A stretch of DNA of 21,585 nucleotides from Candidatus Hydrogenedentota bacterium (GCA_034408725.1 JAWXCN010000202.1:1-21585), one strand, 5' to 3'. Shown: positions 1 through 18,308, numbered from the stretch's first letter. Notes: a model not told the origin generated them from the letters alone. Translations and numbers: made by a program.

Positions 1-568
1 CATCTTCTCCGGGCGCCGTCGAGAAATGCACGGGCCTGCCGATGACTGCTTTCTCCACCGGTCTTCCGGCTTCGACATCGACAGCGTCTTTGATGCGCTG
101 GAGGATCATCGCGGTCAGCTCTTCGATCTGAAAGAGGGTGCCGAAAACTTCCGTACCCTTAAATTCGCGGTAGCGCAAACTGCTCTTGATCGATTGGAAT
201 AGCCGGCCCGGCGAGTTCACCTCCACGGTGGCGTGCGCGCGCACCGCCTCGCGTTTTTGGTCGCGGTCGTCGCGCGGGCGATAGCCCTCGGACTTGTCCG
301 GCTCGGAGGCCACATAGCCTTCAATTTCGATGCCCAGGTCCACCTGCTTCAGAATCACTTCCCGGTCCACGTTGCGGTCTATAAACGCATTCGCGGCGGC
401 CCGTCCCACGAGAGTTTCACCTTCGCGCGACATATACAGGAGTGAAGGGAGCGAGCGCGGGCTGTCGTTCTCCGCATCCAGGTCGAGCACGCGCACCCGG
501 GAATGGTCCGCCACGGCCACACTCGAGTTGGTGGTCCCGAAGTCGATGCCGCAGTAAAGCTCAGGCAT
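1..568 (-). CDS. Hsp70-family protein (YegD-like), running off the left edge of the window
   Basis: Manual translation from ATG at 568: MPELYCGIDFGTTNSSVAV... (Hsp70 phosphate-1 motif GIDFGTTNS), later LFQSIKSSL and AVIGRPVHF, typical of YegD-like Hsp70s. Absent from the ORF track because it has no stop in the window. Confidence 0.85.
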   Translation of the reverse strand, partial: MPELYCGIDFGTTNSSVAVADHSRVRVLDLDAENDSPRSLPSLLYMSREGETLVGRAAANAFIDRNVDREVILKQVDLGIEIEGYVASEPDKSEGYRPRDDRDQKREAVRAHATVEVNSPGRLFQSIKSSLRYREFKGTEVFGTLFQIEELTAMILQRIKDAVDVEAGRPVEKAVIGRPVHFSTAPGED

Positions 569-602
569 TACAGTTACTTTCCGAATCCGCGTAATTGAAG
601 GA

Positions 603-633
603 CGCTGCCCGGTCTAGCGGAGACCGGGCAGCG
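603..633 (-). terminator. Strong GC-rich hairpin upstream of the Hsp70 gene (possible terminator or attenuator)
   Basis: Perfect 13-bp stem CGCTGCCCGGTCT / AGACCGGGCAGCG with a 5-nt loop. Only a weak U-tract follows on the minus strand. Confidence 0.45.
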
Positions 634-875
634 CCTTGAGCACACATGGTTCAAGCCACGCGGTTTGGGTGCGTGGCTTTGATGGCACGAGTTTATCACA
701 AAAGCTGGCGAGTAGCGAGTGGGGAGCGGGGGAAGACAGTGAGACAGGAAGGCAGGAAGGTATGAGGTCCAGCAGGGGATATGGGCTTGGATATGGAAAC
801 AGGGGTCGGTGGATCGCCTGATAGCACCCTTACGTGGGGCTAACAATTGACGGAAGGCAGTCACATAACGGGTAA

Positions 876-905
876 ATTATAGTGGAAAGCCGTAGTTATC
901 TCGAA
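876..905 (-). promoter_or_regulatory. Putative sigma70 promoter divergent from nrdA
   Basis: Perfect TATAAT on the minus strand at 881..876; weak -35 (TCGAGA/TTCGAG) 17-18 bp upstream. Confidence 0.45.
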
Positions 906-914
906 AACCTCGTA

Positions 915-961
915 CCGCAAAGTTTTGTATTGACAGCAACCGCTACCACAGTATATTGTGT
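915..961 (+). promoter_or_regulatory. nrdA sigma70 promoter overlapped by tandem NrdR boxes
   Basis: TTGACA at 930-935 and TATATT at 952-957 (16-bp spacer). NrdR-box match CCACAGTATATTGTGT at 946-961 (consensus acaCwAtATaTwGtgt) and a degenerate box CCGCAAAGTTTTGTAT at 915-930, 31 bp upstream, the usual tandem spacing. Confidence 0.8.
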
Positions 962-1206
962 ACTTCACGCCGCAGAGGCCAGAAAACTGGTTGAAGCAAC
1001 GCAGGATCGCAGGGGCAGCCTGGTCTGAGGGAGCGGGCCCGGGCAAGCAGTGTTATCCTGGTTTTCACGTTCAGTTGAACGAACCGTGTGCGCCAGCCTT
1101 GTCTCTTTGGATAAGGAGGGCAGCGCCACATTTGCAACAAGGGGAATCGGCGTTAACACGAACTGGGTGGCGGCTTTAGCGGAAAAGCGAGCGAAGCGGA
1201 AGGAGG

Positions 1207-4053
1207 GTGTTGGGAGTGATTGAGGCGAAGCCAGCCCAGATTGTGACCAAGCGGGACGGACGCACTGCGTCGTTTGATGGGGAACGGATTCTTCGAGCAA
1301 TAGAAAAGGCCTTCAAGGCCGACCTCGCGCTTGGCCCCGACGGCCCGCTGGATGAAGTGACCATCGTTCGGGCGCGCGAGATATCCGACGCCGTAGTAGA
1401 TGAAGTGATGAATCGTGGCGCGGGCGGCGAACAGCTCGAAGTGGAATCCATTCAGGATGCCGTCGAACGGCACCTGATGAAGGCGGGGTACTACACCGTC
1501 GCGCGGCGCTACATCGTCTACCGTGAAGACCGTAAAAAAGCGCGCGCATTGCGCGGCGACACCACGCTCGGCGGTTTGCCGCAGGCCGAACTCCACGTGA
1601 CCTCGGCAGACGGGTCCCGTGAACGTCTCCAACCCAATCGCATTCGCCGTAAACTGATCGAGGCCGCCCAGGGCTATGAAGAACTGGTCGCCGTCGAACA
1701 GATGAACGACGAAGTGATCCAGACGCTGTACGACGGAATCTCCCCGCATGAGATCGCCAAGGCATGCATCTTTGCGGCAAAAGCGCGCGTCGAACGCGAC
1801 CCTGCCTATACCTATGTCGCGGCGCGGCTGCTGTTGAACGTAATCCATTCCGAAGTGTTGCCCGGCGGCGTCGAAGTTGGTTCGGTGGACGCGGTCCACC
1901 GTTCGCATTTCAAGCATTACCTCGCCGAGGGCGTGGCGATTGAACGGCTCAGCCCCGCACTGCTCGATTATGATTTGGAGCGGATCGCGGACGCGCTGGA
2001 CCTTGAACGCGATTTGCAGTTTACCTATATGGGATTGCAGACGCTTTACGACCGCTACCTGATTCATAACCGCGGCCGGCGGATCGAGTCGCCGCAGTAT
2101 TTCTGGATGCGCGTTGCGATGGGCCTCGCGATCAACGAGGGCGCGCAAAAAGAAGAGCGGGCGATAGCGTTCTACGAAGTGCTCTCGCGGTTCCTGTTCA
2201 CATCAAGCACGCCGACGCTGTTTAACGCGGGCACGCTGCATCCGCAGTTGAGTTCGTGCTATCTCTCGACGATTGAAGACGATCTCGAGCATATATTTAA
2301 GGTGATTTCCGACGACGCACGCTTGTCAAAGTGGGCCGGTGGTTTAGGGAACGATTGGACCAATGTTCGCGCGACTGGGGGCTACATCAAGGGAACGAAT
2401 GGACAAAGTCAGGGGGTCATTCCTTTCCTGAAAGTCGCGAATGATACGGCGGTCGCTGTGAACCAGGGGGGCAAACGCAAAGGCGCGATGTGCGCGTACA
2501 TCGAGACGTGGCACATGGACATCGAGGACTTCCTCGAATTGCGCAAGAACACGGGGGATGAACGGCGCCGCACGCACGACATGCATACGGCGAACTGGAT
2601 TCCCGACTTGTTCATGAAGCGTGTGTCGTCGGAAAGTCATTGGACCTTGTTCAACCCGCATGAGACGCCAGATTTGCATCATCTCTACGGCACGGCGTTC
2701 GAGAAACGCTACACCGAATACGAGGCGATGGCCGAGCGCGGCGAAATCAGGCAGCACAAGCGGATTGAAGCCGTTGTGTTGTGGCGGAAGATGTTGTCGA
2801 TGCTGTTCGAAACGGGCCACCCGTGGATCACGTTCAAGGACCCATCGAACATCCGTTCGCCGCAGGACCATGCGGGCGTGGTGCATTGCTCGAATCTGTG
2901 TACCGAGATTCTCCTGAACACCTCGAAGGACGAGACGGCGGTGTGCAACCTGGGTTCGATAAATCTCGGCGTTCACACGACGGCGGACGGACTCGACGAA
3001 GAACTGCTCGCGGGCACGGTTCGGACCGCGGTGCGGATGCTCGACAACGTGATCGACATCAATTACTACCCGACACCGGAAGCGGGCAACGCGAATCTCA
3101 AACACCGGCCTGTCGGCCTTGGCATCATGGGTTTTCAGGATGCGCTGTACAATCAGAACATCAGCTACGCGAGCCAGGCCGCAGTGGATTTCGCGGACCG
3201 CAGCATGGAGATGATTTCGTACTACGCGATCCTCGCGTCCACGGAGCTGGCCGCCGAGCGCGGGCAGTATCCGACCTATGAAGGATCGAAATGGAGCCGG
3301 GGTCTGTTGCCGATTGACACGGTGTCCCTGTTGAAGGACGAACGCGGTGGCGATTGCGATATGGATACGTCCGCGACGATGGACTGGTCTGTCGTGCGCG
3401 CGTCGCTCAAGAAAAACGGCATGCGCAACAGCAACACCATGGCGATCGCGCCGACGGCGACGATCTCGAACATAACGGGCGTAACGCAATCCATCGAACC
3501 GATGTACAAACACCTGTTCGCGAAATCGAACCTCAGCGGCGAATTCACCTGGGTGAATACCTATCTCGTCACCGATCTCAAAGCCCTCGGGTTGTGGGAC
3601 ACAGAGATGGTGGAAGACCTGAAATATTTTGACGGATGCCTGATGGAGATCGAGCGTATTCCAGAACACATAAAGCTAAAATATGTCACGGCGTTCGAGA
3701 TGGATTCGGAATGGCTCGTGGAATGCGCGAGCCGCCGGCAGAAGTGGATCGACATGGGCCAGTCGCTCAACCTCTATCTCGCGACGCCGAGCGGGAAGAA
3801 GCTCAACGACATGTATATGTTTGCATGGCGGAAAGGCCTCAAGACGACGTATTACCTGCGCAGCCTCGGCGCAACCCAAGTCGAGAAGTCTACGCTGGAT
3901 ATCAACAAGCGTGGCATCCAACCGCGCTGGATGAAGAACAAATCCGCGTCATCGAATATCACGGTGCAACGCGACGATAAAGACGCTGCCGAACCGGCGG
4001 TGTTTCCTAAAGCGTGTAGCATTACCGATCCGGATTGTGAGGCATGTCAGTAA
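1207..4053 (+). CDS. nrdA: Ribonucleoside-diphosphate reductase class I alpha subunit with two N-terminal ATP cones
   Basis: 948 aa. ATP-cone starts VTKRDG and [16 protein letters not shown]; active site [17 protein letters not shown]-terminal CEAC redox pair. RBS AGGAGG at 1201-1206; the true start may be 1210 or 1216. Confidence 0.97.
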
Positions 4054-4236
4054 GGCAATAGCGGTGTTAACGTTAGCATCAGCACGCAAGAATGTCGACC
4101 GATTCCAACGCCGAGACGAGTGCCCGCCGACTCATCGGGGTTATTGTTGTTTTGGCGATAGAAGCGCAGAATGAAGCCATGTCCCGTTTCGATTTCCGAA
4201 CGCCGTCCATAAGCTGGTCTGGCAAAGGACACCGGC

Positions 4237-4629
4237 ATGAAAAAGGTATTGCAGGCTTTGTGCGTTGCAGCACTCGTTTCTCTTCTCGCTTCATGCCCGC
4301 CGGCGGCCCTCCGGCTGAAAGTACATGTGGAGAATAATTCGGCTATTGAAGTAATAGAACGTGTCGTGCTTGGGAATCTCAATGGCCCCCAGATGTTTGA
4401 GGAAATCACAGAAAATCTGCTATCGGAACCTCTTGGGCCAGGCGACCAGAAAAACATTTTTCTTAGAGCCTCCGACGCGGCCGGCGCCAAGGGGATAACG
4501 GTACAATTGCCCGGCGGAAGTGTTTTCTCATCGAATCTGGTGGAAGAGTTTATGGACGGAATGACTGTCAACGCCGTGCTTGCGGACGGCGTGTCATTTC
4601 TCACGATCGATTTCACGGTGGAACCATGA
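4237..4629 (+). CDS. Small lipoprotein, array member L1
   Basis: Signal MKKVLQALCVAALVSLLAS-CP; family motifs VHVENNS, NLLSEPLGPGD, FMDGMTV; RBS AAAGGA. Confidence 0.8.
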   Translation: MKKVLQALCVAALVSLLASCPPAALRLKVHVENNSAIEVIERVVLGNLNGPQMFEEITENLLSEPLGPGDQKNIFLRASDAAGAKGITVQLPGGSVFSSNLVEEFMDGMTVNAVLADGVSFLTIDFTVEP

Positions 4630-5102
4630 GTGCATTTTCCCGCAGGCGCCAACAGCTGGTCAAAATGAAAATTTCGATGCGATTTCGGCGCTTCGGTTTT
4701 CGACAGCAGGGTTTCCTGCGACGCGCGCTATTGTGCGGAATTATGGCCGGTTGTCTGTCTTCGTGTCCTCCTGCAAGAGACGTCGTTACGCTCAATCTTA
4801 TGAATGATTCCGAGCATTGGATCATTGCGGAACTTGTCCTTCGAGACGAGGACACTGACGACGTAGGCGGTAACCTGCTGGCTTCGGACGTGCAGCCGGG
4901 TGGCAGGCGCACGTTTCGTTTATCGGAATCCGAAGTCGCTGGAGTTTTCGGTGTAGGCGTCGAAGTCTCGTATACGGTGAACAATTTTTCGCAAGGAATG
5001 GGTACCGGGCTCATGGAAGAATTTCAAATCGGAGAGCAGTACGACATCGTAGTTTTTGAGGGCGATGGCAATGTTCCGGGCCTCACGCTTGAAAAGCAGT
5101 AA
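4626..5102 (+). CDS. Small lipoprotein, array member L2
   Basis: Lipobox LSS-CP; motifs VTLNLMNDS, NLLASDVQPGG, FQIGEQY. Start uncertain: 4626 (ATGA overlap with L1) or 4665. Confidence 0.75.
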   Translation: MSAFSRRRQQLVKMKISMRFRRFGFRQQGFLRRALLCGIMAGCLSSCPPARDVVTLNLMNDSEHWIIAELVLRDEDTDDVGGNLLASDVQPGGRRTFRLSESEVAGVFGVGVEVSYTVNNFSQGMGTGLMEEFQIGEQYDIVVFEGDGNVPGLTLEKQ

Positions 5103-5136
5103 TGAAGGGAATTCAAAGTTGCAGGGAGGTTCAGAG

Positions 5137-5529
5137 ATGAAAACGCACCTGCGGGCTTTCATTCTGTTGTGCGCGTTCGCGATTGCGGGATCGCTTACCG
5201 GCTGTCCGCGCAACGTGTTTACGGTCCGCATCATCAACGACGCGGACACGGCGCGGGTCATTTCGCTATTGCTGGACGACACGGGAACGATGGGTTCCGA
5301 TTCGGTGGACCTGCTCGATCAGGTCATCGATCCAGGAGAGTCGGGAAGAATTGTCATAGACATTGCCGATGCGGAAGCGGTGAATGCGAACGCGGTCATC
5401 GTTGGATGCATTGAAGGCAGCGGCATTTCTGAAATCATTGATGGGACGGTGCCGGTCGCGTTTGCCGCGGGCGGCGAGATTACCGTGACGGTAACCGGCA
5501 CGGGAGAAATGTTGGTGTTTGATTTTTAA
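5137..5529 (+). CDS. Small lipoprotein, array member L3
   Basis: RBS GGAGGT then ATG at 5137; MKTHLRAFILLCAFAIAGSLTG-CP; FTVRIIND, DLLDQVIDPGE, FAAGGEITVTV. Confidence 0.8.
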   Translation: MKTHLRAFILLCAFAIAGSLTGCPRNVFTVRIINDADTARVISLLLDDTGTMGSDSVDLLDQVIDPGESGRIVIDIADAEAVNANAVIVGCIEGSGISEIIDGTVPVAFAAGGEITVTVTGTGEMLVFDF

Positions 5530-5607
5530 CGCCGCGCACAGGGCTAGCTGTGCGGGCGAGGAGGCAACGTTGCATGAGCAGTTGCCGCGAGTAAAGGAGG
5601 CCAGAGG

Positions 5608-6066
5608 ATGAAGCGCATTGGAAAAATCATCGCGACTTGCGCGCTCGTCGCAGTTTCCGTTACGCAGATGGGGTGCCCGAACGTAATCGAGCGCTTCACG
5701 ATTCGCGTGGTCAACAACAGCAGTGACATCTACGTCGTGTCCGTTTTTCTCGCGCAGCTTCAGGGGCAGAACATTACGGTTGTGTCGGACAACCTCCTCA
5801 ACGATGACGTAGATCCCGCCAATGAAGACGAGTTTAGTGTTCTGTTGTCGCTGGCTGATAGCGAAAACGCGAACGCCATCGGATTCAACCTCGAAGACCT
5901 GAATGGTAATTCGCTGGGCAGTAACGCCGTGTTGTCGGAGGGGTTTGTCGACGGCGTAACGTTTACGCTCACCATCGAAGGGAGCCACGAAACCCAATTC
6001 GATTTTTCGCTCGATCGGGAACTGGACAAAGCATTCGATGACTTTGATGCAGCGGACGAAGAATGA
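5608..6066 (+). CDS. Small lipoprotein, array member L4
   Basis: RBS AAGGAGG; signal ending QMG-CP; FTIRVVNNS, NLLNDDVDPAN, FVDGVTFTLTI; acidic tail. Confidence 0.8.
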   Translation: MKRIGKIIATCALVAVSVTQMGCPNVIERFTIRVVNNSSDIYVVSVFLAQLQGQNITVVSDNLLNDDVDPANEDEFSVLLSLADSENANAIGFNLEDLNGNSLGSNAVLSEGFVDGVTFTLTIEGSHETQFDFSLDRELDKAFDDFDAADEE

Positions 6067-6473
6067 AGATTCTCAGAAAGACTGTTTTTGCGATCATTAT
6101 GACGATGCCGGTCTTTTTGACCGGTTGCCCTTTGCTGGTCAGTTTTACGATTCGCATTGACAACAACGGCGAAAACATCGCGGTAACGGTGGTCCGGCTT
6201 GTGAATCTCGAATCACGGGACAATGTCACTGACAACCTGTTGCCGGTCGAGGTGTCGCCGGGTTCCACGCGCCGCGTGTTGGTGATGATGGATGATGCCG
6301 GCGACGCGGACGCGGTGAAGGTGCGGGTCGAGAGCGTGAACCCGCAACAGCCACTGAGTTTTTCGACTACGCGGGAAGTGGACGGCGGACTTGCCGCGGG
6401 AAAAACCATCGTTGTAACGGTGGAAGGCAGCCCGACGCAGAGCGTCAGCGTTGATGTCGAGGCAATCGAGTAG
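6063..6473 (+). CDS. Small lipoprotein, array member L5
   Basis: ATGA overlap with L4; lipobox LTG-CP; FTIRIDNN, NLLPVEVSPGS, LAAGKTIVVTV. Confidence 0.8.
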   Translation: MKILRKTVFAIIMTMPVFLTGCPLLVSFTIRIDNNGENIAVTVVRLVNLESRDNVTDNLLPVEVSPGSTRRVLVMMDDAGDADAVKVRVESVNPQQPLSFSTTREVDGGLAAGKTIVVTVEGSPTQSVSVDVEAIE

Positions 6474-6523
6474 GGGTAATTCGCGGGGAGCCGCAACCGG
6501 TCTTAGAATTACGGCCTGTATAG

Positions 6524-6686
6524 GTTGAAGCAAAGGGGCTTCGCGTGTCCGTAGAAACGAGGTTAGGGGGTTACGCGCGTGGTGGATGGCGGATTCGCCG
6601 TGGGCAAGACGGTTTTTGTGACGGTGGAAGGCAGTCCTACGCAGAGTGTGAGCGTTGAAGTCGAGGCGGAGGGAGACGAGGAATGA
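6524..6686 (+). pseudogene. Orphan 3' remnant of an L5-like lipoprotein gene
   Basis: 6573-6686 reads TRVVDGGFAVGKTVFVTVEGSPTQSVSVEVEAEGDEE*, 26/32 identical to the L5 C-terminus (6369-6464). In-frame stop at 6564, no signal peptide. A frameshifted upstream piece VEAKGLRVSVET resembles the family motif AKGITV/GNGLRV. Confidence 0.8.
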
Positions 6687-7105
6687 AGTTTTCATTAGAG
6701 CATCGTCGGCACCGGATCTTTGGGGCGTTGCTGGTCGTGCCGATTCTGGTGCTGTTCTCAGGGTGTCCGTTATCGCAGTCATTCACGATTATCGTAAGCA
6801 ACGAGACCGATCTCGTTGACATCACGCGGGTTTATCTTGTCAGCGAGGATTTGGAGGATCAGATCACGCAAAGCATCGTTTTCTTCCCGGTGACGTCCGG
6901 CGAAAGCCGGCGGATCGTTGTGTACTTCTCCAATGCCGGCGAAGCGGGCGGCATTGGGGTGGAATACCGAGAGAATGAGAACGGAGAAGAAGGGATTGCG
7001 ACCGCCGCTATCGACAGCGGATTTGATCCCGGGGACGAATTTGAGGTGACCGCCGAGGAAGTCAAGGAAGGAATTTTCGATTTCGTGATTCGGGAGATCG
7101 AATGA
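6683..7105 (+). CDS. Small lipoprotein, array member L6
   Basis: Lipobox FSG-CP; SFTIIVSNE, PVTSGESRRIV, FDPGDEFEVT; ATGA overlap with the remnant. Confidence 0.8.
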   Translation: MKFSLEHRRHRIFGALLVVPILVLFSGCPLSQSFTIIVSNETDLVDITRVYLVSEDLEDQITQSIVFFPVTSGESRRIVVYFSNAGEAGGIGVEYRENENGEEGIATAAIDSGFDPGDEFEVTAEEVKEGIFDFVIREIE

Positions 7106-7169
7106 TTCGGATAGGAGAACGCCGGTTCGCGACTTTTGCGTGACGTCGCGTCCGGCACTGTAGTTTCCA

Positions 7170-7235
7170 ATGTAATTGCAGCATTGCTCAGCCACGGGGA
7201 TGGCCATTCGTTGGATCGACGACAACAAACTCTAA
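7170..7235 (+). repeat. Decayed copy of the nrdB 5' end
   Basis: Exact 14-mer GCCACGGGGATGGC at 7191-7204, shared with 7803-7816 and 8334-8347. Reads M*LQHCSATGMAIRWIDDNKL* versus Nrd[21 protein letters not shown]. Confidence 0.65.
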
Positions 7236-7245
7236 AGGAGCCGAC

Positions 7246-7638
7246 ATGAAACTGCACGCATCAAAGCTGTGCATCGCACTGCTTGTATGCACGTTCTGCG
7301 CTTGCCCTCCGCGCGAATCATTCACGATTGTAGTCACGAATGAGTACACGTTACCAATAACAAGTTTGACTATTGGGACGGCAGGACCCGGTGGTATAAA
7401 CACAAGCTTCAATTTGCTCTCCGCCCCCCTGGCACCCGGCGAAACTGAGTCCGTTACGCTTAATGTGTCCGACGCGGGAAATGGCAACGGACTGCGTGTG
7501 ACGTATGGGCAGGGTGCGATGTTTAGTTTTGCACTGGGCCAACCGTTTGAACCGGGAATGACCATTTATCTGACAGTGATCTATGGTGGAAACTTCATGG
7601 GCGTCACGTATGCCGACTACGAAGTTGAAGTGGAGTAG
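7246..7638 (+). CDS. Small lipoprotein, array member L7
   Basis: RBS AAGGAG; MKLHASKLCIALLVCTFCA-CP; SFTIVVTNE, NLLSAPLAPGE, FEPGMTIYLTV. Confidence 0.8.
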   Translation: MKLHASKLCIALLVCTFCACPPRESFTIVVTNEYTLPITSLTIGTAGPGGINTSFNLLSAPLAPGETESVTLNVSDAGNGNGLRVTYGQGAMFSFALGQPFEPGMTIYLTVIYGGNFMGVTYADYEVEVE

Positions 7639-7770
7639 CGCTGTGCCTGGCAAACATCCAACGTATGAGAATCGAAGGTGTAGGTGAAAACGCCAATAAG
7701 ACAGTCAAAACGGACGAAAGCGCTTAATGCGCCGCGGTATATTGCACGAAGCATCAACGTTCCATAGTGC

Positions 7771-7847
7771 GAAGGAGAAGGACGATGTCAGCATGTTGCG
7801 CGGCCACGGGGATGGCATTACAGCCCTATGATCAAAAAAAACGAATG
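7771..7847 (+). repeat. Copy of the nrdB RBS and first ~21 codons
   Basis: GAAGGAGAAGGACGATGTCAGC... versus GAAGGGGAATCAGACGATGTCAGC... at 8300; peptide 16/21 identical to the NrdB N-terminus. Confidence 0.9.
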
Positions 7848-8231
7848 CTGCATTGCAGCATTGCCCTGTTGGCATGCATGATGTTGTCGTGCCCGGCGCC
7901 GCGCCGTTCGGTAACCATTAAAATTCAGAACGATTCAGTTGGGGTTACAATTACAGCGCTTTATATAATCATATTTGGCGGGCTCACTGAGCTGAGCCAG
8001 CACGTCACCGACGACCTGCTTTCCGCCGCTGTCGGGCCCGGCGAAGCTGACGAGGTCGTGGTTGCGCTGTCTCGCGTCGGCGATGGAGACGGCTTCGGGG
8101 TAGGTTTGGGCGGGGTACAAGCGTCCGAACAATTCGTACCTTTGAACAAACTCTTTGAAGGGGGCCAGATATTTAATTTAACGATTACCGGAGATGTGAA
8201 CAGCTATTCCATCGAGGTTGTCGAGGAATAA
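7785..8231 (+). CDS. Small lipoprotein, array member L8, fused in frame to the nrdB 5' copy
   Basis: MSACCAATGMALQPYDQKKR-MLHCSIALLACMMLS-CP; SVTIKIQNDS, DDLLSAAVGPGE, FEGGQIFNLTI. Alternative start at 7845. Confidence 0.75.
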   Translation: MSACCAATGMALQPYDQKKRMLHCSIALLACMMLSCPAPRRSVTIKIQNDSVGVTITALYIIIFGGLTELSQHVTDDLLSAAVGPGEADEVVVALSRVGDGDGFGVGLGGVQASEQFVPLNKLFEGGQIFNLTITGDVNSYSIEVVEE

Positions 8232-8315
8232 ATTCGCGTTTAAGGCCTGGCGTGATCAGGCCGATATAAGTTATGTGATTGATAGCGGGAATTGACGGGG
8301 AAGGGGAATCAGACG

Positions 8316-9380
8316 ATGTCAGCTTGTTGTACCGCCACGGGGATGGCGCCACAGTCCTACGATTTGAAGAAGCGGATCAATGCCGAAGATAAAAGCCTGT
8401 TGAACTGCAAACAGGTGGACGTGAACCAGCTCATGCCGTTGAAGTACCACTGGGCGTGGGAGCACTATCTGAATGGCTGTAATAACAACTGGCAGCCCAG
8501 CGAAGTGCCGATGCAACGCGATATCGAGCTATGGAAATCCGATGCGCTGAGCGACGCGGAGCGCCAGGTGATCATGCGGAACCTCGGGTTCTTCAGCACG
8601 GGCGAGAGCCTCGTTGGCAACAACATTGTGTTGGCGATCTTCAAGCACATCACGAACCCGGAAGCGCGCCAGTATCTGTTGCGGCAGGCGTTCGAGGAAG
8701 CCGTGCACACGCACACGTTCCACTACATCGTGGAATCGCTCGGGCTGGATGAACGCGAAATTTTCAACATGTACCACGAAGTGGACTCGATCGAGGGCAA
8801 GGACCAATTCGTCATGCGGCTCACCGCCGACGTGCTGCGCGACGGTTTCTCGACCGAGACCACCGAAGGCATCCAGCAGTTTCTGAAAAACCTCATCGGG
8901 TTTTACGTCGTGATGGAAGGCATTTTTTTCTACAGCGGCTTCGTGATGATCCTTTCTTTCCACCGGCAAAATCGCATGACGGGCATTGGCGAACAGTTCC
9001 AATACATCCTGCGCGATGAAACGACGCACCTGAATTTTGGTATCGATCTTATCAATGGCGTGAAGGAAGAAAACGCGGGCGTGTGGACGCCGCAGTTGCA
9101 GGAAGAAATCTACGACATGATCCGCGAAGCGGTGCAGTACGAGATCAAGTACGCCGAAGATTGTCTGCCGAAAGGAATTTTGGGCTTGAATGCGAACCTG
9201 TTCCGCGAGTATGTTCAACACGTGGCGGATCGGCGCCTTGAACGGATCGGGCTCCGGGCGATCTATGGATCGCGGAATCCGTTTCCGTGGATGAGCGAGA
9301 CAATCGATCTGAGCAAGGAAAAGAATTTCTTCGAGACGCGCGTGACGGAGTACCAGACGGCGGCGAGTCTTGAATGGTGA
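8316..9380 (+). CDS. nrdB: Ribonucleotide reductase beta subunit, class Ic (Mn/Fe, R2c) type
   Basis: Ferritin-like motifs [35 protein letters not shown]-terminus [11 protein letters not shown]. Phe at the radical-Tyr position and Glu as first metal ligand. ATG at 8316 follows RBS AAGGGG. Confidence 0.95.
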
Positions 9381-9421
9381 ATCCGGCCGAAATCGCGTAG
9401 GAGGCGACGACGGATCTGGCA

Positions 9422-9449
9422 GGGGGTTGCGGCGAAAGCCGCAGCCCCC
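9422..9449 (+). terminator. Hairpin after nrdB (terminator-like or mRNA stabiliser)
   Basis: GGGGGTTGCGGC-GAAA-GCCGCAGCCCCC, a 12-bp stem with a GAAA tetraloop; poor U-tract. Confidence 0.45.
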
Positions 9450-9492
9450 AAAATTATTTCCGCTGGCAATGAACGAGACAACGTAAGAAAAC

Positions 9493-10305
9493 ATGCTCAC
9501 TCTTCACCGCCTTTGCATCCACACCATGACGACCAAGCCGTGGCCGTTACGTGAGGCTATCGATGGATACGTGCGTGCCGGCGTGCCGGGAATCACCGTG
9601 TGGCGGCAGCATCTCGAGGGCGTTGGCCTCGATGAAGCAGCGAAAATGCTGCGCGATTCGGAATTGCGCGTGGTGAGCCTGTGCCGGGGCGGATTCTTTC
9701 CCGGTGTAACGATTGCCAAACGGCAATTCGCAATCGATGACAACAAGCGCGCGATCGACGAAGCGAGAGCGATCGGCGCGCCGCTGGTCGTGCTGGTGTG
9801 CGGCGCGGTGCCGCACATGCCGCTCGCGGAAGCGCGTAACCAGATTCTGCATGGAATTTCGTCCATCGTCGATCACGCGGCGCAGGCGCAGGTCAAGCTC
9901 GCAATTGAACCGCTCCACCCCATGTACGCCGACACGCGGTCCGCGGTGAACACCATGGAGCAGGCGAACAACATGCTCGCGGCGTTGCAGAGTCCGTGGG
10001 TGGGAATTACGGTGGACGTGTACCACGTGTGGTGGGACCCGTATTTACAGAATGAAATTCAGCGCGCGGGCAAGAGCATTTTTTCGTTTCACGTCTGCGA
10101 CTGGCGCGACCCGACGCGTGACCTGTTAAACGACCGCGGCCTGATGGGCGAAGGCTGTATCAACGTCCCGCAAATCCGCAAATGGATCGAGGACGCCGGG
10201 TTCGACGGGCCAATTGAAGTAGAGATTTTTTCGGATGAACACTGGGCTGGTGACCAGGCTGAATACCTCGAAAAGATCAAGGTGGCGTATTTGAAGCATA
10301 GCTAA
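9493..10305 (+). CDS. Sugar phosphate isomerase/epimerase (xylose-isomerase-like TIM barrel, AP endonuclease 2 family)
   Basis: 270 aa; metal motifs LAIEPLHP, VDVYHVWW, FHVCDW, DRGLMGEG, EVEIFS. Confidence 0.88.
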   Translation: MLTLHRLCIHTMTTKPWPLREAIDGYVRAGVPGITVWRQHLEGVGLDEAAKMLRDSELRVVSLCRGGFFPGVTIAKRQFAIDDNKRAIDEARAIGAPLVVLVCGAVPHMPLAEARNQILHGISSIVDHAAQAQVKLAIEPLHPMYADTRSAVNTMEQANNMLAALQSPWVGITVDVYHVWWDPYLQNEIQRAGKSIFSFHVCDWRDPTRDLLNDRGLMGEGCINVPQIRKWIEDAGFDGPIEVEIFSDEHWAGDQAEYLEKIKVAYLKHS

Positions 10306-10818: not shown

Positions 10819-11039
10819 CCAGTGTCATGAAGCCCAAATCCTTGGCAAAAATCACACGCATAATCCAATCTTCAATGTCCCCCTTTGAAGCGCGTTTCAT
10901 AATCCAATCTTCGATGTCCCCCTTTGAAGCGCGTTTCATAATCTAATCTTCAAAGTCCCCCTTTGAAGGGGGATTTAGGGGGATGTAAAGTCTGATTTCC
11001 AAACTTAGTATTGAACGAATCTCAAACTCAGGACACTAG
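10819..11039. mobile_element. MITE/REP-like non-autonomous element
   Basis: Imperfect terminal inverted repeats CCAGTGTCATGAA (10819) and CTCAGGACACTAG (11027-11039), 10/13 matching. AT-rich interior with the palindrome TCCCCCTTTGAAGGGGGA followed by TTTAGGGGGAT. Confidence 0.5.
10859..10968. repeat. 39-bp tandem repeat, about 2.8 copies
   Basis: CATAATCCAATCTTC(A/G)ATGTCCCCCTTTGAAGCGCGTTT at 10859 and 10898, with a partial copy at 10937; no spacers. Confidence 0.95.
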
Positions 11040-11173: not shown

Positions 11174-12247
11174 CTACGGAGCGGATGCTTTATGTTGCGG
11201 CAGCGCAATGATGCTGCTGAGGCTGTGGGCGGATTCCGTTGTTGCGTTCAGGCTTGGATTCGCGTCTTGCGGCGGGGCATGCGTCGATGTCGCGGCGATG
11301 GATGCGGCGTCCGGCGCGAGCGCGGGTTCGGACGCGACGGGAGCATTGGTAACGAGGGCTTCGGTATGCGAAGGCGCCAGCGTTTCAGCCGGCGCGTCTG
11401 GTGTGCTTACCGGGGCCGCCGACTCGGGTGCTTGATCGAGCGGTTCGTCCGTCGCCGGGGAATCCGATGAACCGATCATGGCATCGAGTGCATTTTCATC
11501 GTAAATCACGAAGTCGACGCGACGGTTTTTTGCGCGGCCTTCGGCGGAATCGTTTGACGCGACGGGCCGGTACTCGCCGTATCCGCTCGCGGAGAACAAT
11601 TGCGGCGGCAGCGCGCCATCCGTGATGAGCATCATGATGACATTCACGGCGCGCGCGGCGGACAACTCGAAGTTGTTGCGGAAGCGTCCGCTGCTGACGG
11701 GTACGTCGTCCGTATGTCCTTCGACGTGGATGTTGTATTGCCGCGCGCCGAGCACTTCGCCAACAGGCCTCAGGAGTTCGATCGCGGCTGGCGTGAGGTC
11801 GGCGCTGCCGGGTTCAAAAAGCAGGTTGTCGGCGAGCTCCATTACAAGTTTTGGTCCGCGCGGATCGACTTTCGTAGTAACCGATTGCGAAATGCCGCGC
11901 TGCGCCATTAACGAATCGAGGTCAGACTTGAGCGCCTGTATGCGGCGTTTTCGCAGGTCGCCATCCGCCTTCTGGTGGCGCGTGCCTTTACGCGCGTCGC
12001 CTTCAGACTTATTAGGCATTATCGAATTCCCGGCGATGGGTTGTCCGCCAACGCCGACCGCGCTGACCGCGGGTTTTCCGAATACCTGGGACAGGCCAGA
12101 GGCGAGCTGCTTGAATTTTTCCGCGTCGGTGCGGGACATCGAATACATGACGAGGAAGAACACCATGAGCAGCGTGATTAGATCGGCGTATGTGATCAGC
12201 CAGCGCTCGTCGTTCTCGTGCTCCTCGTGCGCCTTCTTCAGTTCCAT
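11174..12247 (-). CDS. motB: Flagellar motor stator protein MotB (OmpA-like peptidoglycan-binding domain, Ala/Pro-rich tail)
   Basis: ERWLITYADLITLLMVFF transmembrane segment with the conserved Asp; VEGHTDD, NFELSAARA, GYGEYRP, NRRVDFVI. Confidence 0.92.
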   Translation of the reverse strand: MELKKAHEEHENDERWLITYADLITLLMVFFLVMYSMSRTDAEKFKQLASGLSQVFGKPAVSAVGVGGQPIAGNSIMPNKSEGDARKGTRHQKADGDLRKRRIQALKSDLDSLMAQRGISQSVTTKVDPRGPKLVMELADNLLFEPGSADLTPAAIELLRPVGEVLGARQYNIHVEGHTDDVPVSSGRFRNNFELSAARAVNVIMMLITDGALPPQLFSASGYGEYRPVASNDSAEGRAKNRRVDFVIYDENALDAMIGSSDSPATDEPLDQAPESAAPVSTPDAPAETLAPSHTEALVTNAPVASEPALAPDAASIAATSTHAPPQDANPSLNATTESAHSLSSIIALPQHKASAP

Positions 12248-12272
12248 GCAGGGGGTCCTTCGCGCGGGTATG

Positions 12273-13043
12273 TTAGGCGGCTTTGGCCGTGGTCTTCGAT
12301 TTCTCGGACATGAACGACATCAGCTTCTGTTTGACGATGTGCGGGCTGTCGCCGCCGTAAAGGGAGAGCACGCCTTCTACGATCATCGTTCTGCTCATGG
12401 CCTCTTCCTTGGCAATGGTGGCGAATTTTTTCGATATCGGAAGGAAGACGAGGTTTGCAAAGGCGACACCGTAGAGGGTCGCGATGAACGCCATGGCGAT
12501 GGACGGCCCGAGCGAGTCCGGGTTAGAGAGGTTGCCCAATACGTGGATGAGGCCGATGACCGTTCCGATAATTCCCATGGTGGGCGAGAAACCACCGGCG
12601 GTTTTGTATACGTCGGATGAGGTCTTGATGCCCTCCTCTTCGACATAGATTTCTGTCATCATGATTTGCTTCACCAACTCGGGGTTGGTACCGTCGATGA
12701 CCAGTCGCAGGCCGCGGCGCAGGAAGGGGTGATCCACCTTGAGCTTTTGGTTCTCAAGTGCGAGTATGCCTTCCTTCCTCGCGATGGTTGCAAGCTGCAC
12801 GAACATGTCTGTGATCTCGCGCGGTTCGATGCCGGGTTTGCGAATCAGCAGCCCGGTTTTTTTCGCGCAATCCAATACCTGATGCAAGGTGTAGCAAGTG
12901 ACCGTCGAGCCAAAAGTCCCGCCGGCGATCAGCATGAGCGCCGAGGGCGCGAACAGCGAGCTGATATGCGCGCCTTCCATGAGGGCGCCGCCGATAATGG
13001 CTCCGATTCCGACAACGAGACCTATAATGGTCATTGGTTCCAT
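12273..13043 (-). CDS. motA: Flagellar motor stator protein MotA
   Basis: Start MEPMTIIG at 13043 with RBS AAGGAG; ARKEGILALE, GGFSPTMGIIGTVIGLI, AFIATLYGV. Confidence 0.92.
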   Translation of the reverse strand: MEPMTIIGLVVGIGAIIGGALMEGAHISSLFAPSALMLIAGGTFGSTVTCYTLHQVLDCAKKTGLLIRKPGIEPREITDMFVQLATIARKEGILALENQKLKVDHPFLRRGLRLVIDGTNPELVKQIMMTEIYVEEEGIKTSSDVYKTAGGFSPTMGIIGTVIGLIHVLGNLSNPDSLGPSIAMAFIATLYGVAFANLVFLPISKKFATIAKEEAMSRTMIVEGVLSLYGGDSPHIVKQKLMSFMSEKSKTTAKAA

Positions 13044-13240
13044 GTGCGCGAATCTCCTTGGTGCGCATGGTGCTAACGCATGCGTGCAGTTGTGGTTGCA
13101 CACGCGGCGATTTTAGCAGATAATGTCAATAATTTCTACATATTTTTCAACTGGCGTAACATAGTCATGGGCCTATAGTTAGAAAACGAACTGCGGGATT
13201 TGCGGAATTAACAAAAACATTAAACTCGGAGGATTTTAGC

Positions 13241-16575: not shown

Positions 16576-17781
16576 ATGCAGGATGATCCACCACCAACAG
16601 AGCCGGCGACATTCCCAAATGGAAATTTGGGAACGAGGGGTGAGACCGAGCCCGCTGCGTTCTCGAATGGAAATTCGGGAACGAGTGGCGAGCAGAGGGG
16701 CGTGCCGCCGCGTCCGATATCGCGCGCGGGCGCGGTGCGTTTCGTAATCCTGTTTCTGGTTCTGACTGCGGTGTTCCTGACTTTCGGCCGGTACGCGGTG
16801 AACACAGGGCCGATGAACTGGTATCTGTTCCAGGTCGCGCGGCAGACGTCATTTGTGCTGGGCGTATCCGGTCACTCTTGTTCGGTCGAGAACCCTGATC
16901 CTTATGCCGCGCGGGGCGACGCGTTGCGCGCGGAAACTGTTGCGTGGCGGAGCGGTGATGAGGAAGCAGCAACGGCGCTCGAAGGTGGCGTACCGCCGAG
17001 TTCCTACGAAGTGTGGAAGTATCGGGCGGCGAGGTTGGCGCGTGACCTGCGCCATGAACAACGCTACCTGGCCATGGCCGAACCGCTGCCGCGCCCCAGC
17101 GTCATGTCGCCGGAAGAACACATCACGCACATTCGCGCCAGCCTGGACCGGGTCGTCGCTTCGACAAAACGGGGCGTACCGCCACAGTCCAGCGAAGTCA
17201 TGGTGAAAGGACTGAAAGAAATCGTTGCAACCACCGAAGGAATAGTCGCAGCTTTGGAAAGTGGATCGCGTCCTTCCGGCGTTCCGATCGAGGAAGCTCT
17301 TGACCAACTCGAAGCGGAAGTCGAACGCGCGCGAGCGGGACAAGCCGCATTTCTGGGCGAACGGGTCGCCGCGCTGACAACGCAAGTTCAGGACAGGCTT
17401 GGTCCGTTGGTGATGTTTGTCGCGCGAGAAAGTGCGGATGCGCCGCGGCGCTTTAACTTCCACCTTGTGCCGGATTGCGGCGCATTGCCGTCGATGTCGA
17501 TCTACCTCGCCGCGCTGCTCGCGTTTCCCGCGACGTGGCGGCAAAGGCTGGTTGGAGTACTGATTGGCGCGCCGCTTCTGTACGCGGTCAACATTGCGCG
17601 GCTGGTATGCCTCGCGTTTATCGGCGCTTATGCGGAGAACACGGACGTATTCGAATTCGCACACCAATACGTCTGGCAGGCCGTTTATATTCTGATCGTT
17701 GTGGGCGTTTGGCTGCTTTGGGTTGAACTGATTGTGCGTCCGGGGGCCGTATGGTCCGGCAAAACAACATCCGGCGCGTAA
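16576..17781 (+). CDS. Exosortase/archaeosortase-family protein (XrtH-like) with a large soluble insertion
   Basis: Cys-Arg-His triad motifs VPDCGALPSM, VNIARL, FEFAHQYVWQ within multi-TM segments. Start uncertain (16576 or about 16702). Confidence 0.8.
   Translation: MQDDPPPTEPATFPNGNLGTRGETEPAAFSNGNSGTSGEQRGVPPRPISRAGAVRFVILFLVLTAVFLTFGRYAVNTGPMNWYLFQVARQTSFVLGVSGHSCSVENPDPYAARGDALRAETVAWRSGDEEAATALEGGVPPSSYEVWKYRAARLARDLRHEQRYLAMAEPLPRPSVMSPEEHITHIRASLDRVVASTKRGVPPQSSEVMVKGLKEIVATTEGIVAALESGSRPSGVPIEEALDQLEAEVERARAGQAAFLGERVAALTTQVQDRLGPLVMFVARESADAPRRFNFHLVPDCGALPSMSIYLAALLAFPATWRQRLVGVLIGAPLLYAVNIARLVCLAFIGAYAENTDVFEFAHQYVWQAVYILIVVGVWLLWVELIVRPGAVWSGKTTSGA
16597..16692 (+). repeat. Two 48-bp imperfect tandem repeats containing a REP-like palindrome
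   Basis: TEPATFPNGNLGTRGE / TEPAAFSNGNSGTSGE; palindrome TTCCCAAAT-GGAA-ATTTGGGAA at 16612-16633. Confidence 0.8.
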
Positions 17782-18308
17782 TATTGTTTGCGCTCCGGCT
17801 CGCGATCATTGCGCCAGCCGTCCTGGTGATCTGGGGGCTGTGTCTTCCCGCATACGCGTGGTTCATTGGGCAATGCGCGTCGATGGTCCTGAATATTTTC
17901 GGGCATGGGATCGAGCGGGTGGTGGTGGACGCGGAAGGGTTGCTGAACTCGAAAACGAAGATGGGGTTTGTTCTCGGCGAACGCATGCCGACTACGCCGA
18001 TCGCGCTTGTGGTGTCCAATATCGCGACGTTTGTCGCGCTGGTGTTGGCGACGCGCCGGCTAGGTTGGCGTGACCGGGGATGGGCGGTTGCGCTCGGGGT
18101 GGCGGTGCTTGCGGCTTCGCACGTAACACATGTCGTGGTATTTTTCGCGTTTGCGAAGGGGATTCAACAGCACCCGCAAGTTCCAACGGCGATTGCGCAG
18201 ATATTTATTTCGCTTCCGTTTTTGTTGTGGATTGCGCTGGTGTTTTTGGGGAGTTACGGGAATGATGGGACGGATGGGATACATGAGAGGGATGGAAAAG
18301 GGGCATGA
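17751..18308 (+). CDS. Exosortase-associated membrane protein (exosortase-like topology, no catalytic Cys)
   Basis: 185 aa with about 4 hydrophobic segments, overlapping the exosortase gene. NIATFVALVLAT...GWAVALGVAVL parallels SMSIYLAALLAF...LVGVLIGAPLL of the exosortase. Confidence 0.6.
   Translation: MVRQNNIRRVILFALRLAIIAPAVLVIWGLCLPAYAWFIGQCASMVLNIFGHGIERVVVDAEGLLNSKTKMGFVLGERMPTTPIALVVSNIATFVALVLATRRLGWRDRGWAVALGVAVLAASHVTHVVVFFAFAKGIQQHPQVPTAIAQIFISLPFLLWIALVFLGSYGNDGTDGIHERDGKGA

Follow-up and report, generated by a model that had tools for sequence, protein, structure and literature searches.

Stacked remnants of the nrdB 5' end in a variable lipoprotein array of a Candidatus Hydrogenedentota bacterium: probable scars of homology-facilitated illegitimate recombination

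Why does the start of a housekeeping gene recur upstream of the gene itself, each time in front of a lipoprotein gene? The question arises from contig C202 of a 5.17-Mb, 280-contig assembly (G000) of a Candidatus Hydrogenedentota bacterium; this contig, 21,585 nucleotides in length, constitutes the window analysed here. In the window, nrdA and nrdB are separated by 4.3 kb, and eight lipoprotein paralogs (L1–L8) and no other genes lie between them. Outside the genus, the nrdA–nrdB gap is 70–478 nt in 11 of 12 loci (one is without upstream DNA, and two probably repeat genomes). A sequence-only reading of the window had described copies of the nrdB start within the array and had proposed that lipoprotein cassettes are serially captured at this gene. 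The genus relatives used for comparison are labelled G001–G004, L063, and L067. The features that frame the locus are as follows.

915..961, plus strand, two NrdR boxes, 31 nt apart, that overlap a sigma-70-type promoter (930-957)
1207..4053, plus strand, nrdA, large subunit of class I ribonucleotide reductase, conserved gene flanking the array on the left
4237..4629, plus strand, L1, lipoprotein paralog, not in the sister array (GC3 0.54)
4665..5102, plus strand, L2, lipoprotein paralog, open frame from 4626, not in the sister array (GC3 0.54)
5137..5529, plus strand, L3, lipoprotein paralog, not in the sister array
5608..6066, plus strand, L4, lipoprotein paralog, 55% to its sister ortholog
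6063..6473, plus strand, L5, lipoprotein paralog, 70% to its sister ortholog, the sole type in all five arrays seen
6683..7105, plus strand, L6, lipoprotein paralog, 74% to its sister ortholog
7246..7638, plus strand, L7, lipoprotein paralog preceded by an RBS of its own, 48% to an internally deleted sister ortholog (model pLDDT 93.5)
7785..8231, plus strand, L8, stub–lipoprotein fusion frame of 148 aa, body 38% to its sister ortholog
8232..8315, plus strand, spacer carrying the RBS of the working nrdB, with homology to the sister-species spacer (p=0.003)
8316..9380, plus strand, nrdB, small subunit, conserved gene on the right flank and presumed homologous anchor
9422-9449, terminator-like hairpin behind nrdB

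The NrdR box pair is the only pair within positions 1–9500 of the window and is also present 5' of nrdA in 4/4 genus relatives. The promoter that it overlaps scores 11/12, and an nrdR gene is present in the genome. Judged by these motifs, 915..961 is the probable control region of the nrdA–array–nrdB unit. Since the promoter and the NrdR pair precede nrdA and a terminator-like hairpin follows nrdB, the array is probably part of the nrdAB transcript. An additional NrdR-like site, which had been suggested at 7732, is at chance level: it is a lone box matching 5/6 key positions, and 0.6 equally good matches are expected in the array by chance. No partner box was found for it, and an NrdR site needs two 16-bp boxes located 15–16 bp apart, according to PMC13584703.

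The L1–L8 products share 23–40% pairwise similarity, and the family consists of a signal helix followed by a small beta-sandwich, with a Cys residue that is invariant in 40/40 aligned members after the N-terminal helix. With a hydrophobic signal ending in this conserved Cys, they are predicted to be bacterial lipoproteins. None of the eight was named by Pfam above the cut-off, and a Foldseek search yielded no match at E 0.001. The best structural scores, those of the C-terminal domain of AlgF (Z 9.5, rmsd 2.7, 89 aligned) and the outer domains of PepT and HGSNAT (Z 8–9), give no function. GC3 is low at both ends of the array (0.54 in L1 and L2, 0.56 in L7, and 0.59 in L8) and host-like in the middle (0.66–0.71). 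No toxin–immunity pairs were found in the array. Family matches are present in 23 of 135 genomes of the phylum, and 17 other loci (~3.4 kb) contain one match each; among the loci seen, the tandem arrangement occurs only in this genus. Pattern scans returned seven metagenome loci and 10 genome loci among the matches listed, of which 3/7 and 4/10, respectively, were discarded as unrelated or due to chance; several of the remainder duplicate genomes already in the comparison. A second stub-fused lipoprotein was not found among three candidates, the two matches being the query itself and P0008. The latter joins an L7-type start to an L8 body (79% to L8) and is a paralog chimera from a close relative.

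The number of lipoprotein genes in the nrdA–nrdB interval differs widely within the genus. Among the five complete intervals of relatives, G004 contains none, G001 and L067 contain one each, G002 contains two, and L063 contains five; L063 matches the two contigs of G003 by eye, and G003 is the sister species of the present genome (97% identity on nrdA and 85% on nrdB). The nrdB gene itself shows 84–89% nucleotide identity within the genus, and 81–89% to the genus relatives when followed along its length. The interval is thus a variable slot between two conserved genes, containing from 0 to 8 paralogous lipoprotein genes in the genus. The sister array has the order L4-L5-L6-L7-L8, the same as here, with identities of 55, 70, 74, 48, and 38%, respectively, and L1–L3 are missing there. 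The expectation that the nrdB-proximal gene is the most variable is partly borne out in this comparison with one sister species: L8 is indeed the most diverged ortholog (38%), but the nrdA end varies too, as seen in the absence of L1–L3 from the sister and the 55% identity of L4. None of the relatives has an interval in which L7 immediately precedes nrdB. The sister L7 (L063:3193-3474) has a large internal deletion, and P0030 looks like its intact form (75%). The G004 slot, which is without a lipoprotein gene, holds a short, apparently broken frame (L044:570-970), which we take to be GxxExxY-like.

The remnants embedded in the 3' half of the array are listed below; the orphan L5 end had been overlooked by the sequence-only reading.

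6572..6686, plus strand, orphan 3' end of a second L5 allele, an open frame with its stop overlapping the L6 start
7179..7222, plus strand, older nrdB stub, aligned to nt 5-55 of the gene across three gaps and fitting the G003 and G002 alleles best
7771..7832, plus strand, younger nrdB stub, comprising an RBS, a start codon (ATG, 7785) and codons 1-16, its frame continuing into L8
7833..7847, plus strand, inferred join, where nrdB codons 17-21 and the start of L8 share microhomology

The copy of the nrdB start at 7785 was confirmed: 16/21 residues are identical to those encoded from 8316, seven codon differences are synonymous and five are non-synonymous, and the RBS is similar. A 14-mer shared by the copies occurs three times in the 5.17-Mb genome (7191, 7803, and 8334), on every occasion in the array/nrdB region. 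When the genome was searched with a profile built from the nrdB starts of nine relatives, the copy at 7785 scored 58.4 bits and the third copy 25.9 bits. Over 10.3 million positions, only 7785 and nrdB itself reach 30 bits and seven positions reach 25 bits, so that the score of the third copy corresponds to p ~0.002 per 4.2-kb region; a shuffle test of the L6–L7 spacer, which holds this copy, gave p=0.0025. The homology reported at 7170 is real, but it lies at 7179–7222; the ATG at 7170 does not correspond in register to that of nrdB, the shared core being offset by one codon. As had been stated, each extra copy stands before one lipoprotein gene (L7 and L8, respectively), and the one at 7785 continues in frame into L8. 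The nrdB homology of both stubs stops at codons 17–19, and the copies are 77–80% alike. Fainter echoes described at about 5104 and 5573 are background; they score 10.1 and 12.2 bits, values that are reached by 1.4 and 0.36% of the genome positions, and their shuffle-test p values were 0.995 and 0.88, respectively.

In the five relatives, no stub was detected, the best score being 17.6 bits (only the nrdA-side contig was scanned in G004). Contrary to what had been predicted, the number of stubs does not track the number of lipoprotein genes: relatives with 0, 1, 1, 2, and 5 lipoprotein genes have 0 stubs, and the present genome has two stubs for eight genes. Two candidates from the sister lineage were rejected. 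A putative decayed stub before the sister L8 scored 13 bits at best, all of it from a KKR microhomology, and the spacer before the G003-type nrdB (p=0.0125) was one of 19 spacers and is not significant after 19 tests.

The younger stub does not resemble its own nrdB more than those of other species. Over codons 1–16, it matches its own nrdB at 39/48 nt and those of the five genus relatives at 38–41/48 nt. At the seven sites where the own and sister nrdB alleles differ, it agrees with the sister at four, with its own allele at two, and with neither at one, and it has none of the peculiar states of its own nrdB. Its 'synonymous differences' are thus largely changes between working alleles rather than the result of selection on the stub. 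Under the dS of 1.06 between the species, a neutral relic would be expected to retain ~58% identity to the sister, against the 41/48 seen (p 3e-5); this age test assumes neutrality and is void if the stub is constrained, and the 7785 stub is in frame with an RBS. The stub at 7179 scores 41 against the G003 and G002 alleles and 30 against its own allele.

The start of the working nrdB, in turn, differs in affinity from the rest of the gene, as had been anticipated for codons 1–21: nt 1–63 group with L067 (59/63), and the remainder groups with G003. Fisher tests of the two parts with three outgroups gave p values of 0.046, 0.049, and 0.004, which are post hoc, the partner L067 having been chosen afterwards; L067 also has short branches. 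In the best of five trees (bp-RELL 0.83), the stub is the partner of G003 and the working start is that of L067; the AU test on these 48 nt rejects none of the four others (p 0.06–0.19). The spacer before the working nrdB is sister-like, not L067-like; none of the sampled genomes is thus the donor. At the other end of the stub, the first 15 nt of the sister L8 have their best match along all of nrdB at codons 17–21 (11/15 in G000 and 10/15 in G003), and codons 17–21 of the 7785 copy fit the sister L8 start (10/15 nt) as well as they fit nrdB. We read this 15-nt match as the probable microhomology of an illegitimate join; alternatively, it may be the trace of an older fusion, which would favour duplication. 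No microhomology was identified at the other two joins.

The orphan L5 end is the clearest case, with the look of newly joined working alleles from different species, and the evidence that its two copies stem from different lineages is strong. It is 80% identical over 96 nt to positions 6368–6463 and aligns onward into L6 with L063. Compared with the intact L5, 13/24 synonymous sites and 6/69 non-synonymous sites are changed (dS 0.96, dN 0.09; Fisher p 1e-5). The frame is unbroken and equally far from the intact L5 (74/93) and the sister allele (75/93). This synonymously biased divergence, which bears the mark of purifying selection, together with the unbroken frame and the equal distances, points to the recent joining of two working alleles.

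The reading that we favour, with some reserve, is that the array bears the stacked scars of homology-facilitated illegitimate recombination (HFIR) anchored in the conserved nrdB gene, with donors bringing lipoprotein genes together with a new nrdB start. DNA of a related species containing one or more lipoprotein genes, a spacer and nrdB would pair with the host nrdB by homology, and the free upstream end of the donor would join the host at a short microhomology, using host RecA and no integrase. When the join falls early in nrdB, the RBS and the first 16–18 codons of the host would stay upstream as a stub and the donor would supply the nrdB start. At least two such events may have taken place, that at 7179 being the older and that at 7785 the younger, and one more event would have had its join inside L5, leaving the orphan at 6572. 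The younger stub would have been fused in frame, and now probably starts the translation of L8. If donors share the gene order, each event would add an nrdB-proximal suffix; loss of resident copies and regain would then keep the order L5-L6-L7-L8, and the last genes would turn over fastest. The long homologous anchor expected on one side is present in nrdB, the microhomology on the other is present at the L8 join, and the interval holds only the eight paralogs, without integrase or transposase. The displacement step in the sequence-only reading, i.e. that incoming DNA gives nrdB a new start and leaves the old one upstream, is supported: the 7785 stub is no closer to its own nrdB than to those of relatives, the two stubs stop within codons 17–19, nt 1–63 of nrdB and the remainder of the gene have different nearest relatives, and the most diverged ortholog is the nrdB-proximal one. 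Donor DNA may have entered by transformation; ComEC-family proteins are encoded in 5/5 genus genomes, and also in 10/14 control genomes, and are no proof of competence. Several points count against the HFIR reading. The sister already has L7–L8 in this order, so that extra losses of resident copies are needed; the AU test rejects no other tree, the L067 partner was picked post hoc and there is no sampled donor; and the synonymous bias at one of the comparable loci described below, C46, is weak (pS 0.32, pN 0.19).

Similar scars were found elsewhere in this genome. When 220 short repeat pairs were screened, four rows emerged, in three of which a 5' stub precedes a working gene (nrdB, C46, and C142); the fourth, C14, is out of register and was dropped. 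In a second screen of 166 pairs, 12 of the 38 rows listed were synonymously biased, and five of these 12 (C51, C142, C203 as read from its screen row, C225, and the nrdA–nrdB array) have an orphan second copy. No integrase or transposase families were detected in the 5/5 cargo frames scanned at four loci. On C142 (L126, G000:C142:5589-8800), the 5' part of an endonuclease/exonuclease/phosphatase gene recurs as a frameshifted copy (83%, pS 0.6, pN 0.04). It lies 2.9 kb upstream of the working gene, and the two copies enclose two genes of lower GC, one of which encodes a VWA domain. In a donor comparison with distant relatives, the C142 stub and the working copy matched one relative at 113/183 and 106/184 positions, respectively. 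On C225 (L128, G000:C225:8708-10007), an orphan 3' end of a Gfo/Idh/MocA oxidoreductase gene (85%, pS 0.32, pN 0.01) lies behind a low-GC gene, and the small gene that comes next is partly duplicated and fused to it. Further repeats of gene ends, each pair enclosing one low-GC gene that has no Pfam family, are present on C46 (L127, G000:C46:15716-17269) and C51 (L129, G000:C51:34008-35603).

Among other explanations, the one with the most substance is an old tandem duplication within one genome (a gene accordion), in which a unit of lipoprotein gene, spacer and nrdB start was duplicated twice to yield L7 and L8, the stubs were lost from the sister lineage by deletion, and the copy at 7785 was kept here as the start of L8. 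L7 and L8 have each other as nearest paralog at 38% global identity (clade support 67), the two stubs share an endpoint, as unequal crossing-over between stub and nrdB would give, and the sister L8 begins with an nrdB-like KKR motif. The RBS of the sister L7 resembles that of the stub (p=0.003, 1/171 pairs), and the P0008 chimera shows that recombination occurs between paralogs. We nevertheless regard the duplication as rather unlikely. The stub is better preserved than a neutral relic should be, and the changes private to it are non-synonymous, unlike the pattern expected under protein constraint; the spacers before 7785 and 8316 have no homology beyond the RBS; no decayed stub was detected in the sister spacers (p 0.46 and 0.74); and the selection-shaped divergence of the unbroken L5 orphan and the scars around unrelated cargo are left unexplained. 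Retention of the copies as a regulatory or translational element, such as a hairpin or binding site in the 14-mer that ties the lipoproteins to nrdB expression, is very improbable. The 14-mer, which has 4-base inverted arms, is identical in the three copies, and the 7785 stub is preserved better than neutrality predicts, but the predicted folds differ among the three regions, the 14-mer is absent before the other six lipoprotein genes and from the arrays of all relatives, the third copy had been discovered via the 14-mer itself, and the adjacent NrdR-like site is at chance level.

The strong form of the sequence-only reading, a polarised, age-ordered array in which stub–lipoprotein circles insert ~20 codons into nrdB, is improbable. 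It draws on the two stubs ending within codons 17–19, each followed by one lipoprotein gene and the upstream one being more decayed, and on the divergence from the sister, which grows towards nrdB (74% in L6, 48% in L7, and 38% in L8). Against it, there are no stubs in the five relatives and none before L1–L6, the nrdA end has seen gain or loss of L1–L3, whose GC3 is low, as is that of L7–L8, the 14-mer is broken in G001 and G004, no second stub-fused lipoprotein occurs among the three candidates, and two stubs for eight genes is not one repeat unit per cargo gene. In a similarly doubtful extension, the first ~18 codons of nrdB would serve as an entry point that needs no integrase and can be used again: once a stub exists, host recombination with the nrdB start would pop out a circle of lipoprotein gene, spacer and start that re-enters the nrdB start of relatives; if so, re-entry would build an age-ordered surface-protein array in which each new gene is given a ready translation start. 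In the four sequencing runs, for which contigs, with rare forms dropped, were available, we found no circle, back-joint or deletion joint. Use of nrdB as a cassette attachment site is also at odds with the sister array, where L7 and L8 stand in order without stubs. That the locus is an artefact of chimeric assembly of strains is scarcely credible. The genome is in 280 contigs and the assemblies of two relatives break inside the nrdA–nrdB interval, but L068 is 100% identical over 11,019 nt, among the matches listed (it may come from the same source sample), and contigs of four sequencing runs, of nine listed, cover 4881–7747 and 7792–8498 with zero differences. No contig piece among the matches listed bridges 7747–7792. 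The array showed no credible alternative joint in the contigs of the four runs, which drop rare variants; a joint of 5246 to 8913 in two runs was set aside, as one side of it measures just 21 nt.

HFIR-type gain, the reading preferred here, has precedents in the literature. The experimental work on this type of mechanism is summarized in PMC6382021. An anchor with an illegitimate join at the other end has been proposed for the serial T6SS immunity arrays of Vibrio cholerae, which are likened to integrons without an integrase (PMC5361080), and serial orphans occur in Acinetobacter cdi loci (PMC6336857) and in rhs loci (PMC2935791). As described in PMC5361080 and PMC6336857, displacement in T6SS and cdi loci resembles the nrdB array in having a homologous anchor at one end, an illegitimate join at the other and no integrase, and in producing serial arrays with remnants, in which older pieces are pushed away from the anchor. 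However, the anchor there is the 5' part of the effector locus and the orphans accumulate downstream, whereas the anchor here is an unrelated essential gene downstream, the remnants are 5' starts upstream, and no toxin–immunity pairs are involved as far as found. The array also resembles rhs C-terminal displacement in its repeats of a conserved piece, each beside different cargo and decaying with distance; in PMC2935791, the rhs fragments are near copies of their own working gene and circles are proposed, whereas the nrdB stubs are no closer to their own gene and no circle was seen.

Insertions with long target duplications, as treated in PMC2853133, similarly have cargo without mobility genes between direct repeats of >30 bp. 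At the array, the repeat is >30 bp and the insert <20 kb, and the relatives are without the stub; the insertions in that text, however, mostly have near-identical repeats and restriction-modification genes, whereas those of the array are 80% alike with a synonymous bias. As with SXT at prfC and the dusA islands (PMC8409611), a housekeeping gene receives a new start and N-terminus and its old start stays; those elements encode an integrase and use fixed att sites, none of which was found in the array, where the copies are 77–80% alike. With the lpl cluster of Staphylococcus aureus (PMC2568036) and the integrase-free hotspots flanked by core genes (PMC5635113), the array has in common variable tandem lipoprotein paralogs, paralog chimeras, units of change crossing gene boundaries, and conserved flanks that act as recombination handles. 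The lpl genes have a highly conserved central stretch, in contrast to the 23–40% similarity of L1–L8, and no relation to Lpl was found here.

The array is accordingly known in kind, the process having been described for rhs, T6SS, and CDI arrays and like scars being present at other genes of this genome, so that the proposal of a novel capture system is not upheld and no new mobile system is revealed on the present evidence. It is new in detail, as the 5' end of a housekeeping gene serves as a repeated anchor and an old start is reused in frame; within the limited literature set searched, there is no prior account of nrdB stubs or of such an array. If the HFIR reading is correct, three integrase-free gene-gain scars are stacked within 1.3 kb, the start of an essential gene has been replaced, and the old start now fronts a lipoprotein. 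Sequential displacement, argued so far for toxin/immunity loci, would then extend to a housekeeping 5' end in an uncultured phylum, and such scars could mark additive between-species transfer genome-wide.

Several other features were observed outside the nrdA–nrdB region of the window. The minus-strand segment at 11174–13103 contains what we take to be a motA/motB-like pair, and the window is otherwise without flagellar genes. Three head-to-tail 39-nt repeats (10859–10975) are located between sugar-isomerase-like and motB-like genes, and two 48-nt repeats (16597–16692) are located in the 5' part of a gene for a 401-aa membrane protein, which, together with 17751–18308, is presumably exosortase-like, as judged by eye.
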